From contig CM000153.2 of assembly GCA_000004695.1 (NCBI GenBank), positions 3,872,001-3,936,000 on the forward strand: a stretch of 64,000 nt of DNA, in the 5' to 3' direction. Origin of the DNA: Dictyostelium discoideum (lineage: Eukaryota). The notes beneath the pieces were generated by a model. It did not search any database. It saw only the letters and a list, made by a program, of their open reading frames with translations, and was not told where the DNA came from. The translations under genes and the position numbers were made by a program. This document shows positions 15,210-22,502 of this stretch, piece after piece; the stretch's first letter is position 1; each line of letters opens with the position of its first letter.

Positions 15210-18200
15210 ATAAAATCTTCAAATTAAATAGTACCTTTATTAAAAAAAAAATTAGTGTTTAGAAATTTATTGTGGAATTTTAGTTATATTTACAATTTAT
15301 TTGTTTATTAGTCTTTCTAAAAGAGACACCCATATTATTTTTATTTTTTCTCTTTTTTGTTATTTAAAAGCTTTTTTTTGTATGAATTTATAGAAACTTT
15401 ATAACTTTTTTTTTTTTTCATAAAAATAACCTGTCGATCAATATCAGAAAAAATAAATCAGTTTTTAAAACAAATAACCTCACACTTTTAACCAAAAATT
15501 TATTGTTTTTTTTGATTGAAAATAAAATAAAAATGAAATTTCCAAATATATACACTCAAAAATATCAATAAATTCGTAAAAACCTTAAAAGGGTAATTAT
15601 TAAAATAGTAAAAAAAAAATAAAAAATAAAAAAAAAAATAAAAAAAAAAAAAAAATTTTATTTTATTTTTTTTTTTTTTTAGAAAATTAAAAAGAAAAGA
15701 GTAAAAAAAAAAAAGTAAAAAATAAAAAATTAAATAAAAAAAAAAAAAAAATTAAAAATAAAAATAAAAATAAAATAATATCCTAATATCGGTAGGCCCT
15801 TAATTGTAAAATATTTTTTTATTTTTTATTTTTATTTTTTTTTTTAAAATTCTAATATTTTTTTCCTTTACCTTTTCTAAATCTAAAATAGCACAACAAC
15901 ATATAAACACTAAACATATAAAACATACGCAAATTATCAAATTTTAAGAAGACACAAGAAAATTATTTTAAAAAAAAAAGGTAAAAACAATTTTAAAAAT
16001 TATTATTATAATTTAGATTTAATTTTAAGTTTATTATAATTTTTATTTTTATTATCATTATTATTATTATTATTATTATTATCATTATTATTACTATTAT
16101 TATTATTATTATTTTTAATTTTAGATAAATAGATATATTATCCTAGTTTTGTGGATTATAAAAAAAAAAAAAAAAAAAATTTCAAAAAATAAAAACTATT
16201 AATGAATAATTGAAAAAAAAAAATAAAAAAATAAAAAAATAAAAAAAATTAGATTGTATTGCTACTTGCACCTTTCTCTTTATTTCTTTCTTTATTTTTT
16301 TATTTTTATTTTTTTTTATTTCTTCATTTCCCCCTTTTTTGTATTTTCAAATATAAACATCCATGGTGCCATTGTTTAAAATAAAACTAATTTTGGCAAT
16401 AATTATACATTTTTTTATTTAATATTTTTATTTTTTAATTTTTTTATTTTTTTATTTTTTTATTTTTTTTTCTAATAAATTAATAATAAAAAAAAAAAAA
16501 AAAAAAAAAAAAAATTTATTTGTAAAAAAAAAAAATATGGTGAATAGTAATAAAAATAAAAAAGAGAGAAAAGTAAAGAGGGTTTACACAATAAAGGGGG
16601 AAAAAAAAAAAATTTGAAAAATAAAAAAAACCAAATAAAATAATTCTTAATAAAAAAATCAATATTTTTGAATAACATACCCTTTCATCAACATCATATT
16701 AATCATCATTATTGGTTGTTGTTTAATAATTACTTTTTTTGTTTGCAATCTATACTTTTGTATCAAAAACAAACAAACACTCACCCTAATCTATTGTATT
16801 GTTATAAATATCCACCCAGCAGTTTTAATAATTATTATCAATCTCCTTTTTTTTTTTTTTTTTTTTTTTTTTTTTTACAAGGGATCTATTAATTTAATAA
16901 TAATAAAAATAATAAAATAAAATAAAAAATAATAATAATAATTATTTATTTCACTCCTATTCTCTTTAAAACTTTTTGAGCATGTTTATCAGTGGTTAAA
17001 ATTCCAATAGATTTTGTTGTTGTTGTTGTTGTTGTTGTTGTTGTTGTTTTGTGTGTGTGTGTGTTTTTGTGGGTGAATGAGTGTGTACTATATATAAACT
17101 TTATAATAATAATAGTAATAATAATAATAATAATAATAAAAAATAATAGTAAAATTTTATAGTAGTGTTCAATAATTCATTAGTTATCGGGGGTATATTA
17201 TTAGTGGAGTTGTGTCGTTTTGATTGATGGATCAGTTTTTAGCCCATACCTTTTTATAATATTATTAATTTATTTTTCAGTTATTATCACACTCTATTTC
17301 CTTCCCCACTCACTATTATTTATTTTCATAAAATAATAGTTATCCATATAATAATTTTTAGTGTGTCAATGTGTGTTTAACTATTTTTGTTAAGAAATAA
17401 ATTAATGTAATTTCTATTTGTGTTTCCATGTTTGGTTATTAGAAATCCAAAAAAAATAAATAAAAATAAATAAAAAAAAAAAAAATAATAATATTAATAT
17501 TAAATAAAAATAAATAAAAAAAAAATAAAAAAAAAAAAAAAAGACAACACATCATATATCATATCATATCTTTTTTTAACATTGATTTTTTTTGTTTAAA
17601 AAAAAAAAAAACACATTTCCTTATAAAACTATTCACAACACTACCCCCACAATAGTGTGTTGGCACAAATTTGTTTTTTTTTTTTTTTTTTTTTTTTTTT
17701 CCTCTCACCCACTATCTCTCACATTCTCCCACTACTATTACCACTATTGCTTCTGCTGCTACTACTATTAGTAGACACATACACACACAAAAAAAAAAAA
17801 AAAAAAAAAAAAGTGGGAGAATACATCAATATTATTAATAACAATAAATTAAAAAATATATGTATATATATAAATATATAAAAAATTATGTTCATTTATT
17901 TTAATATGTGTTATGATGATCTAAGATATTGAAATTAATTATTTTAAAATTCGCCTATTAAAATTTTAATTTTTATTACTATTTTATTTTATTTTTATTT
18001 TTATTTTTTTTTAAAAAATACACACCCAAAATTTGTCTCTATTTCTCTATTCCATCTTTTTTACAAACACACCCCTCACTATTACCATCATATCAATAAC
18101 AATAATAATAAAATTGTAGTGTGTGCTGGTGGGTTGGTTTTTGTTGTTGTTGTTGTTTTTGGTGTTTTTTTTTTTTTTTTTTTGTTTTTTGTTTTGTTTT

Positions 18201-19727
18201 GTTGTTGTTTGAATAGATGTAACCAATAATGATAATATTGTTTTTATTTTTTTTATTTTTTTATTTTATTTTTTATTTTTTTTTTTTTTTTTTTTTTTAT
18301 TTTAAAATAATTATTTATAAATAATTTGATTTTTGGTGTTTTCCATCTTAGTGTTTTTTAATTTTTTAATTTTTTTTTGGTTGTAGTTAATTTTATTTGT
18401 TTTGTTTTTCTTTTTTTTTTTTTTTTTCTGTATCAATAATAACAATATTTAGAGGGAAAAAAATAATAAAATAATAATAACCATATCTTTTTAAATTCAA
18501 TTTTAATATTATAATATTTATTTATTTTTATTTTTTAATTCTATAACAGACCATTTGTACGTTTATAAAAAAAAAAAAAAAAAAAAAAAAAAAAAAAAAA
18601 AAAAAAAAAAAGGGGGGTTTTACACCGGCTCCCATTCCCCTTGAAACATTAATTACCAAAGGGGTGGTTTTTTTAAAATTAAATTAAACCTTCCCTTTTT
18701 CGGCTAAAACCCCTAAAAAAAAAATTTTTAATTAATTAAAATAAATTAATTAATTAATTAAAATTAAAAAAATTTTTAAAAAAATTAAATTAAATTAAAT
18801 TAAATTAAGGAAACCTTTTCTTATTGGAAAATTTTTTAAAAAATTTTTTTAATTGGGTTTTTTTTTTTTTTTTTTTTAAAAAAATACTTAGATTTTTTTT
18901 TTTTTTTTTATTGTTTTGTGAACCCGAAAGACTTTTAATTTTTTATTATTTTTTTTTTTTATAACCAAAAAAAAAAAAAAAAAAGAATATTATTAAACAA
19001 TAAAACTATATACACAAGATTAATAAATAATACTTAATCATATATAAATACAAAAAAAAAAATAATAATAATAATAAAAATAAAAATCACGATATATCCA
19101 TTGGCAACGAGAAATTAAGACCATACTAATTAATTAATTTAAAAAACAGTTGTCTTCATTTTTTTTTTCGAAACCAGCACAAATCTGATTAAAAAAAAGT
19201 ATGTTATTTCTTAAAAAAAAAAAATTAATTTTATTTATTTTTTTTTATTTTTTTTTTTTTTTCCTCCTCGAAAATATCTTTTTTTTTTTTCAAAGAGAAA
19301 AAAAAAAAACCAATCATCGTTGATGCTTTTTGCTTCCCAAATTTCTATTACAAAATATAAAAAATAAATAAAAAAAAAAAAAAAAAAAAAAAAAAAAAAC
19401 AAATCACCAAAAAAAAAAAAAATTTTCAAAAACTTTTTTTCACATAAGCGTTTCATCACAACTTTTCTCACAAAAATAAAAAAAAAAAAAAAAACAAAAT
19501 AACAATAATAGAAAAATTTATATACAAAATTCTATTTTGTTTTGAACAAATCCTTAGGAATAAATATTTATATTATATATAAATAATTAAAAACAACTAA
19601 ATATATTGGCTTTATATTTTTTTTTTGAAAAAAAAAAACAAAAAAACAAAACTAAAAAAAACAAAAAAAAAAACGAAACAAAAAACAAACAATCTATTTA
19701 TTTATTAAATCTATTTATTGATTTAAT

Positions 19728-19805
19728 ATATTTATTAATTTATTTATTTATTTATTTATTTATTTATTTATTTATTTATTTATTTATTTATTTATTTATT
19801 TATTA
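19728..19805. repeat. (ATTT)n tetranucleotide microsatellite
   Basis: tatttatttatttattt... tract read directly. Confidence 0.9.
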
Positions 19806-21524: not shown

Positions 21525-21612
21525 AATAATAATAATAATAATAATAATAATAATAATAATAATAATAATAATAATAATAATAATAATAATAATAATAATA
21601 ATAATAATAATA
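21525..21612. repeat. (AAT)n trinucleotide microsatellite (non-coding context), flanked by poly-T and poly-A runs
   Basis: aataataataat... about 29 units read directly. Confidence 0.9.
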
Positions 21613-22502
21613 AAAAAAAAAAAAAAAAAACCCACATATACACACACATTTAATATATTCATAAAAAACCATAATAGATCTATTCATAAAATAATAATAA
21701 TAATAAAATAATAATAATAATAATAAAAAAAATAAAAAAAATAAAATAATAATTTGTTTTTATAAATTTATTTTATTTATTCCACCCTCTTTATTTATTC
21801 ATTTATTTATTCTTTTTTAGTCAAAAAATTTTATATACTAACATAATAATAATTGTTTAAGCAGATACTTTTATATATCTACCAATATATAAGAAATTTC
21901 TTTATTATGTTTTTAGAGAATCTCATATGAACAAAAAAAACATTCATCCAATAGCAATATATTTATTTATTTAAACAAACAAAATAGCATAACAAAAACA
22001 ACCAAAAACCCAAATCTCAAATTTATTTATTTAATTTATTTATTTATTTATTTATTTATTTCACAATAATAACAACAACACAAATTATTTTTTTTTTTTT
22101 CTTTTAATATTTTTTAATTTCAATTAGACTTTACAATTTATTGTCTCAATATTTTTTTTTTTTTTTTTTTTTTTTTTATTATATTAAATTTTATTTTTTC
22201 ATTTTTTTTTTTTATTCAATTAACACAATTTAAATCGTAATAATATTATACCCTTAAAATATCTATATAAAATATACTTATATTTTTAATTATATATTTA
22301 TAAATTCTATTTATATTATTTTTTTATTAAAAAAAAAAAAAAAAAAAAAAAAAAAAAAAAAAAAAATAAACAGATAAAAAAAAAAAAAAATAATTTAAAA
22401 CACCACAATCATACACACAATAATAAATTCTTTAAAGAAATAATTTTTTTTTTTTTTTTCCACCACAAAAAAAAAAAAAAAAAATTTTAAAACTTCAAAA
22501 AG

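Follow-up and report, generated by a model that had tools for sequence, protein, structure and literature searches.

A candidate multi-promoter leader in the long gene-free interval between rpl37 and ttpA of Dictyostelium discoideum

Introduction

In Dictyostelium discoideum, acaA has three promoters along a 4-kb intergenic region, and the non-coding first exons that they produce are each joined by splicing to one shared exon with the ATG (PMC2952602, PMC5055082). The carA gene has a distal promoter for aggregation and a proximal promoter for the post-aggregation phase (PMC2952602, PMC5055082). Three promoters and mRNAs have been shown experimentally for pdsA (Faure et al. 1990, as cited in PMC5055082), and the distal pdsA promoter is thought to be a novelty of the group 4 dictyostelids (PMC5055082). 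Here we describe a long tract free of open reading frames (ORFs) between the genes rpl37 and ttpA, together with the long non-coding RNA (lncRNA) models that have been published over it, and compare it with the upstream regions of these three genes. The tract lies in a window of 64,000 nucleotides of chromosome 4 of strain AX4 (CM000153.2, positions 3,872,001 to 3,936,000), to which positions refer unless they are given as chr4.

15210-22502, no strand: ORF-free tract, from the rpl37 stop codon to the ttpA ATG
14590-15209 (chr4:3886590-3887209), plus strand: rpl37 (DDB_G0285971), the upstream neighbour, whose linkage to ttpA is kept across Dictyostelia
22503-23906 (chr4:3894503-3895906), plus strand: ttpA (DDB_G0285973), encoding a tandem CCCH zinc finger protein

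The lead-ins RYKTELC and KYKTETC of the TtpA protein are the signature of the tristetraprolin (TTP)/ZFP36 family, and its best matches outside the dictyostelids are ZFP36 proteins. Bai et al. (2021) report ttpA as the only gene for a TTP-family mRNA-decay factor that D. discoideum expresses. The control of ttpA itself is not described in the searchable literature. We find that the tract is a transcribed non-coding region that hides no protein gene. By analogy with pdsA, acaA and carA we propose, with about even confidence, that it may serve ttpA as a 5′ leader and regulatory domain with several promoters.

Results

A transcribed tract without a hidden protein gene

The tract comprises 7,293 bp with a G+C content (GC) of 15.2%, which varies along its length between 8 and 30% and compares with 26-44% in the adjacent exons. 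Homopolymer and microsatellite sequence makes up about half of it. The GC skew of the plus strand is -0.23 overall and reaches -0.45 in the 2 kb closest to ttpA. Mean intergenic length in D. discoideum is ~700 bp (PMC5295588), and the tract is about ten times as long. The gene-free length that the initial annotation had singled out is therefore unusual, but it is not unique, as the interval upstream of pdsA in the same window is longer (8.5 kb).

There is no credible ORF between rpl37 and the CCCH gene, as had been claimed from the sequence at the outset. Among 99 stop-free segments of at least 35 codons in the tract none is coding-like; all are of low complexity and rich in F, K, I, L, N and Y. 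Their peptide entropy is at most 3.7 bits and their GC at most 0.32, whereas the adjoining real exons have entropies of 3.85-4.09 bits. Ten longer or more GC-rich stop-free segments gave no Pfam match above cutoff, the only matches being sub-threshold and of low complexity. No translated similarity was found by tblastx among the equivalent gaps of six species, and the interval is without a gene call in each of three D. discoideum-complex genomes with independent annotations. On the same results we reject a gene with micro-exons, which had been offered as one explanation of the tract.

A small structured non-coding RNA gene (a class I RNA, a small nuclear RNA or a small nucleolar RNA with a Dictyostelium upstream sequence element, DUSE) was also considered and rejected, since motifs, Rfam and folding were all negative. 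The tract holds four matches to the DUSE motif against 9.5 expected, matches to the class I RNA motif occur only with two mismatches and at chance level, and there is no Rfam match at gathering thresholds or at permissive E-values. A tRNA scan of the tract found none, and a repeat search within it returned low-complexity families only, with no transposon remnant and no dispersed repeat.

That the tract might be an lncRNA locus, another suggestion of the initial annotation, agrees with the published record. The RNA-seq catalogue of Rosengarten et al. 2017 (PMC5295588) already contains four lncRNA models between rpl37 and ttpA, all of them labelled minus; we read them as plus on the grounds given in the next section.

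16506-17615 (chr4:3888506-3889615), listed minus, read plus: CUFF_3684_1 / DDB_G3972313 (PMC5295588 Files S4 and S6)
17684-18575 (chr4:3889684-3890575), listed minus, read plus: CUFF_3686_1 / DDB_G3971487, starting within a T-run, with a C-rich island after it
19724-21333 (chr4:3891724-3893333), listed minus, read plus: CUFF_3688_1 / DDB_G3970459, starting inside a (TATT)27 microsatellite
21613-22339 (chr4:3893613-3894339), listed minus, read plus: CUFF_3689_1 / DDB_G3972659, with its end in an A38 run, 164 nt short of the ttpA ATG

Together the four models span 4,339 of the 7,293 bp (59%), and transcripts are present across 16506-22339 at least. Being 727-1,610 nt long and without coding potential, they qualify as lncRNAs in length (at least 200 nt) and in non-coding character. 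The catalogue holds 621 lncRNAs in the 34-Mb genome, with a median GC of 17% (PMC5295588). The blocks of the tract are ordinary entries of it in being non-coding and in having a GC near that median (12-19%), but they differ from other intergenic entries in that four occur in one interval, where threes are found elsewhere on chr4, and in that their strand and independence are doubtful. The CUFF identifiers of Files S4 and S6 disagree for the same coordinates: chr4:3888506-3889615 is CUFF_3684_1 in File S6 and CUFF_3672_1 in File S4. It seems that the identifiers of File S4 were sorted without the other columns.

The published expression correlations (Spearman) differ from block to block. CUFF_3684_1 correlates with ttpA at +0.49 and with rpl37 at -0.69, CUFF_3688_1 at +0.47 and +0.03, and CUFF_3689_1 at +0.34 and -0.35, whereas CUFF_3686_1 has a growth-phase-like profile with correlations of -0.21 with ttpA and +0.53 with rpl37. 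These differences would fit separate promoters, and the anticorrelation of CUFF_3684_1 with rpl37 argues against read-through from that gene. The four models need not be separate units, because most of their boundaries coincide with unmappable runs; model ends lie mostly at or near homopolymers or microsatellites (A27, T27, A45, (TATT)27, (ATA)n and A38). In the catalogue, reads were mapped by TopHat with a maximum intron of 500 nt and models were accepted with at least two reads. Splicing of tract RNA onto ttpA is undetectable under that intron maximum.

Orientation of the published models and the pdsA control

The catalogue appears to have inverted the strand labels of its novel Cufflinks models. 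According to File S7 of PMC5295588, sense reads cover the whole of the models called antisense, for which antisense reads are few or absent; one has 246 sense and 0 antisense reads, and a 963-nt model has 370 sense and 2 antisense reads. With sense coverage complete and antisense reads nearly nil, these models must derive from the sense reads.

Two controls in the window point the same way. The first is pdsA (DDB_G0285995, 57775-59286, minus strand), which encodes a class II cyclic AMP (cAMP) phosphodiesterase (Pfam PDEase_II, E 1.8e-145). A catalogue lncRNA of 2,967 nt at 59300-62267 is labelled plus; it is 14 nt away from the pdsA ATG and correlates with pdsA at 0.67. Taken as a minus-strand transcript, this model has its far end 5 nt from a start architecture 2,987 nt upstream of the pdsA ATG.

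62301-62270, minus strand: pdsA distal start architecture, consisting of a TATA element TATAAAAT (62301-62294) and a T-run (62283-62274), followed by AATTAATCAAAAAC

The aggregation-specific start of pdsA reportedly lies 3 kb upstream, a distance that we compared with the sequence. The ORF-free upstream region of pdsA extends from 59287 to beyond 64000, and a donor-like site, GGTATGT, is found in it at ~61653.

The second control is a catalogue lncRNA at 44620-45998 that is labelled minus and is co-extensive with a plus-strand ORF, no plus model being listed there. This plus-strand ORF (44686-45465 and 45018-45689) is interrupted by a run of N (an assembly gap), and its end corresponds to full-length PIG-Y (PF15159, E 3.9e-20). 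This is probably a real protein-coding gene that was evidently unannotated in the 2013 gene set. Because File S7 and the two controls indicate inversion, we read the four tract models as plus. The tract transcripts thus most likely run towards ttpA, a conclusion drawn from the catalogue tables and the two controls and not from reads.

The upstream region of pdsA resembles the tract in several respects. Both are multi-kilobase ORF-free intervals (8.5 kb and 7.3 kb) of almost the same GC (15.6% and 15.2%), in each, C/A boxes are in excess on the sense strand of the gene, and in both T-run or (ATTT)n elements are followed by C/A-rich sequence. Each is abutted by a supposed opposite-strand lncRNA, 14 nt from the ATG at pdsA and 164 nt at ttpA, with correlations of 0.67 and 0.34-0.49. 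The two regions differ in that the pdsA promoters have been demonstrated by experiment, whereas those of ttpA are candidates, and in that pdsA has one continuous model of ~3 kb, while the tract has four models across 5.8 kb. A further difference is that the pdsA distal promoter is probably a group 4 novelty and the ttpA gap is present in species of all four groups. The acaA and carA genes are alike in having several promoters spread over the upstream region, as proposed for ttpA, but they are cAMP-signalling genes, whereas ttpA is a post-transcriptional regulator with candidate exons.

Constraint within the D. discoideum complex and candidate elements

The tract aligns collinearly over its whole length with a second D. 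discoideum strain (98.5% identity) and with both D. cf. discoideum genomes compared (~80-89%). Alignment of these genomes reveals ~26 invariant islands of 35-153 bp, which consist mostly of GC-containing sequence. The most conserved block lies close to ttpA.

21765-22140, plus strand: most conserved non-coding block, 375 bp, at -740 to -360 from the ttpA ATG, with ~99% identity among four genomes

A stretch of 153 bp inside it (21935-22087) has no difference at all, and this proximal block is under strong constraint. RNA folding of the block is no better than that of shuffled sequences on either strand, with z-scores of +0.35 and +0.81. Several arrangements that resemble promoters and splice sites can be recognized in the block and elsewhere in the tract, and are listed here from the far end towards ttpA.

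16410-16514, plus strand: candidate most-distal promoter, ~6.0 kb from the ATG, with T-rich sequence (16410-16471), then CTAATAAATTAATAATA and A27
17622-17790, plus strand: candidate internal promoter or leader start, with TATAAAA (17622-17628), T27 (17674-17700) and a C-rich island beginning CCTCTCACCCACTATCTCTCACATTCTCCCAC
21836-21864, plus strand: look-alike of a branch point and 3′ splice site in the conserved block, with TACTAAC (21836-21842) and AAG/CAG ~20 nt further on, as judged from sequence
22034-22087, plus strand: candidate distal promoter or leader start, with (ATTT)7 and then CACAATAATAACAACAACACAAATTA
22220-22258, plus strand: perfectly conserved 39-mer containing ATC|GTAATAAT, with a GT at 22237 (GTAATA), a candidate 5′ splice site of a leader exon
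22399-22466, plus strand: proximal promoter-like region, with a C/A box AACACCACAATCATACACACAA (22399-22420), T16 (22444-22459) and then CCACCAC

The candidate most-distal promoter is located directly at the 5′ end of CUFF_3684_1. A T-run or (ATTT)n followed by C/A-rich sequence is the pattern shared by the putative starts at ~16.47, 17.70, 19.8 and 22.06 kb. The C-rich island CCTCTCACCCACTATCTCTCACATTCTCCCAC of the internal candidate is largely kept in D. cf. discoideum, and four genomes of the D. discoideum complex have the same copy number of the (ATTT)7 repeat. The 3′ part of the conserved block, where (ATTT)n precedes CAACAAC-rich sequence, can also be recognized in P. violaceum, where its position relative to the ATG is almost unchanged (-441 in D. 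discoideum and ~-420 in P. violaceum). The P. violaceum counterpart of the proximal region has a CACACCACACACAA box at ~-140 and TATAAAT at ~-60.

The rpl37-gap-ttpA arrangement across Dictyostelia

Four further species have rpl37, a long gap and ttpA in this order on one strand.

T. lacteum: rpl37-gap-ttpA on one strand, gap of 3.15 kb
A. subglobosum: rpl37-gap-ttpA on one strand, gap of 3.57 kb
C. fasciculata: rpl37-gap-ttpA on one strand, gap of 7.2 kb
H. album: rpl37-gap-ttpA on one strand, gap of 9.8 kb

None of these four gaps contains a convincing ORF. In the fully assembled loci, those of the four species and of D. discoideum, the gap is the largest intergenic interval of the fetched locus or window, and this is true even of T. 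lacteum, which has a compact genome. P. violaceum is compatible with the arrangement: its ttpA contig ends 5.3 kb upstream and its rpl37 contig ends 464 bp downstream of the gene (positions 1-5304 and 10587-11050 of the fetched loci), and both contig breaks lie inside the presumed gap, probably at low-complexity sequence. A ttpA gap is found in species of all four dictyostelid groups, and the same gene pair, in the same orientation and with a long gene-free spacer, recurs in four species of distant lineages. No other neighbour of rpl37 or of ttpA is kept across the compared species, and rpl37-ttpA is the only conserved adjacency.

The gaps also share a polarity of composition. C exceeds G on the ttpA sense strand of the gap in all six species, with skews of -0.23 to -0.39, and in the four loci that offer the comparison this skew is the strongest among same-strand (++) intervals.

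Some gene models touch these gaps. A EukProt model of 563 amino acids (P0014) consists of a complete rpl37, junk and a complete TtpA, the predictor having bridged the gap with invented exons; it points to adjacent, co-oriented rpl37 and ttpA in another organism, presumably a dictyostelid. Doubtful models are present at 1191-2801 and 4081-7006 of the fetched C. fasciculata locus and at 2217-2534 and 6657-8905 of the fetched H. album locus. They comprise a 183-aa “rpl37” and products of 111, 29 and 100 aa that extend over 0.3-2.9 kb, and they have no Pfam match and no mutual similarity. These models may reflect transcript evidence rather than real proteins.

G/T and C/A boxes

The initial annotation described the tract as studded with G/T- and C/A-rich boxes that resemble the G-boxes and CA-rich elements (CAEs) of developmentally regulated promoters, and the boxes are all present at, or a few bases off, the positions it gave. 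We defined a box as a run of only G/T or only C/A that holds at least four G or C. Runs such as CCACACCCCCAACC, ACACCCA and GTGGGTG are similar to the G-box/CAE consensus, and in these short G/T-only or C/A-only runs the tract may be likened to the GBF-bound G-boxes and CAEs of post-aggregative promoters. The tract has 14 boxes, a number not reached in any of 200 simulations under a first-order Markov model, for which the expectation is 4.2 +/- 2.1. Other non-coding intervals in the window show a like excess over that model (13 against 2.9 and 7 against 1.4). Box density is 1.92/kb in the tract, 1.67/kb in other non-coding DNA of the window and 1.86/kb in coding DNA, and boxes therefore have no GBF-type enrichment relative to ordinary non-coding DNA.

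The boxes are thus more frequent than in random sequence, but they are not a special property of the tract, and, because their density is that of the D. discoideum non-coding background, the resemblance to G-boxes and CAEs is a weak argument. Most are kept in D. cf. discoideum, but the one at 21628-21650 is missing from both D. cf. discoideum genomes, and several are plain (GT)n or (GTT)n microsatellites of varying length. Their polarity is a separate matter: 11 of 14 boxes in the tract and 10 of 13 in the pdsA leader are C/A boxes on the sense strand of the downstream gene (21 of 27 combined, p = 0.006).

A probable reference error and other features of the window

One segment of the tract is probably an error of the AX4 reference, as judged by comparison with related genomes.

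18612-18880, no strand: evidently mis-called AX4 segment, with doubled letters after an A45 run

Between 18500 and 18900 AX4 is ~70-90% identical to the other D. discoideum strain, compared with ~100% elsewhere, and within 18612-18880 AX4 departs from a sequence shared by that strain and the two D. cf. discoideum genomes. Doubled letters (GGGGGGTTTT, AATTAATT) directly follow the A45 run in AX4 and resemble a poor read end. The interval 18576-19723 is without a transcript model, and for the start of that interval this fault is part of the explanation, because reads could not map to the faulty sequence.

Elsewhere in the window, a DJ-1 homologue at 13433-14050 (minus strand) is identical to the AX4 protein Q54MG7. 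A third long ORF-free interval, of 4.4 kb and 19% GC, lies at 45690-50086 and includes tRNA-Asp(GTC) (47821-47893, minus strand), the only tRNA gene found in the window.

Discussion

The best-supported explanation of the tract is the one that the initial annotation had raised as a multi-promoter control region for the CCCH gene. It draws on the pdsA-like anatomy and catalogue signature and on the C/A polarity, while its starts and junctions are candidates at the sequence level. In the model that we propose, a multi-kilobase non-coding interval would be transcribed in the direction of ttpA, and an ORF-free interval of 7,293 bp does lie directly upstream of the ATG exon. Several promoter or enhancer modules would correspond to the GC-containing islands, mostly conserved, that lie between rapidly evolving homopolymers and microsatellites. 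Transcripts would begin at distal promoters, and splicing across long introns would join their non-coding first exons to the ATG exon, in the manner of acaA; the outcome would be growth-phase and developmental expression of ttpA from separate promoters. We infer the plus orientation, the belonging of the transcripts to ttpA and the individual promoter and splice candidates. It is also proposed that the rpl37-ttpA linkage has been kept because a long transcription unit abutting rpl37 would leave few harmless break points.

A number of observations weigh against this model. No start site, spliced read or reporter result ties the tract to ttpA mRNA. The published label of the models is minus, and its correction is derived from tables of the same paper and two controls rather than from reads. 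The catalogue threshold is very lenient (at least two reads) and its lncRNAs typically reach ~1 read per kilobase per million mapped reads, and the signal could be noise or nascent read-through. A plausible proximal promoter within ~60 nt of the ttpA ATG, as predicted from the sequence, could be sufficient alone. A leader of 6 kb would be longer than that of pdsA, which is said to be ~3 kb. It would also exceed the 4 kb of acaA (PMC2952602, PMC5055082). Median identity of the tract is little higher than that of neighbouring non-coding DNA (0.84 against 0.81 and 0.80 against 0.75; p = 0.02-0.15).

Comparison with D. purpureum and other dictyostelids, which the initial annotation had recommended, cuts both ways. 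The arrangement recurs in four species, but the rpl37-ttpA linkage is broken in D. purpureum, where the genes after rpl37 are an oppositely oriented PhyH-domain gene and one for an unrelated 431-aa protein (GL870955.1, 10001-14569); the best matches of a protein search included no ttpA orthologue in that species. Sequence conservation beyond group 4 was not detectable in the gaps of six species by blastn, shared 11-mers, nhmmer or tblastx, and no conserved non-coding elements common to distant lineages were found. Distant gaps share 6 11-mers against 5 in the control, and nhmmer gave weak, bias-laden matches across the gaps, save for two weak collinear ones in P. violaceum.

In the main rival explanation, the transcripts are independent lncRNAs in the ttpA sense, with their own promoters in the tract and ends before the ttpA promoter, either functionless or acting by transcriptional interference. 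This is possible, if somewhat doubtful. It would account for four separate catalogue models with differing expression correlations, the nearest of which ends 164 nt before the ttpA ATG, and part of the unmodelled 18576-19723 is ordinary mappable sequence, so that the models may be separate units. However, an identical catalogue signature comes from the pdsA leader, a stretch of pre-mRNA, most of the model boundaries fall at unmappable runs, and the 500-nt intron maximum would have hidden any splicing onto ttpA. It is unlikely that the published strand is correct and that one or two long minus-strand RNAs run from ~160 bp upstream of the ttpA ATG towards rpl37, from a divergent or bidirectional promoter. 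The catalogue listing and the positive correlations with ttpA are in keeping with such RNAs, and their 5′ ends at 22339 and 18575 would abut A38 and A45, seen as T-runs from the minus strand; start sites in D. discoideum usually have a T-run immediately before them. These boundaries are explained equally well as limits of mappability, however, the antisense models of File S7 were built from sense reads, and the pdsA and PIG-Y controls are oppositely labelled. Minus-strand RNAs would also be rich in G and U, whereas in most of the genes measured in the window the coding strand has more A than T and at least as much C as G.

We consider it improbable that the tract is an inert low-complexity spacer whose RNA is background or leaks from the highly expressed rpl37, and that the gap lengths elsewhere are coincidence or local mutational bias. 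Such a spacer would be expected to look much as the tract does in that about half of it is homopolymer or microsatellite, it is barely more conserved than non-coding DNA elsewhere, its boxes are no denser than the background and the expression threshold is lenient. Against it stand the status of the gap as the largest intergenic interval in five fully assembled loci, the uniqueness of rpl37-ttpA as a conserved adjacency, the invariance of the 375-bp block and of dozens of islands of 35-71 bp across the species complex, and the anticorrelation of CUFF_3684_1 with rpl37. A hidden protein-coding gene of micro-exons or odd composition is barely credible. The length of the gap and the dubious ab initio models of 29-111 aa in H. 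album and C. fasciculata might suggest one, but the tract has no coding-like segment, no Pfam match, no translated similarity among six species, no gene call in relatives and a GC below that of exons.

A bolder extension of the leader model can be formulated, to which we attach little belief. Tandem AUUUA/UAUUUAU repeats are the motif bound by TTP-family proteins. If ttpA were transcribed from up to ~6 kb upstream with the conserved block as a leader exon, TtpA might autoregulate through AUUUA/UAUUUAU repeats in it, and the need to preserve so long a transcription unit would account for the linkage to rpl37. A leader of ~6 kb would, if real, be the longest known in Dictyostelium.

The arrangement invites comparison with the genomic regulatory blocks of animals. 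In both cases a regulator and a bystander housekeeping gene, here rpl37, are linked over a long gene-free interval, and the linkage persists at great evolutionary depth while the surrounding gene order decays. The present case differs in measuring kilobases and not hundreds of kilobases, in having no elements shared between groups, and in the break in D. purpureum.

The kind of element discussed here is known and the lncRNA models are published, but their relation to ttpA is not. The rpl37-gap-ttpA arrangement, the near-invariant proximal block and the probable inversion of the labels are new, as far as the searchable literature shows. The inversion, if true, would alter the reading of all 621 lncRNAs of the catalogue, many of which may be unannotated leaders, untranslated regions or missed genes. 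The locus is of moderate interest to Dictyostelium specialists and does not represent a new kind of biology. If the leader model is true, ttpA would join pdsA, acaA, carA and srfA as a gene whose stage-specific expression arises from separate promoters, and the conserved rpl37-gap-ttpA arrangement would be a rare example of deep, selectively maintained microsynteny where the other neighbours have changed.

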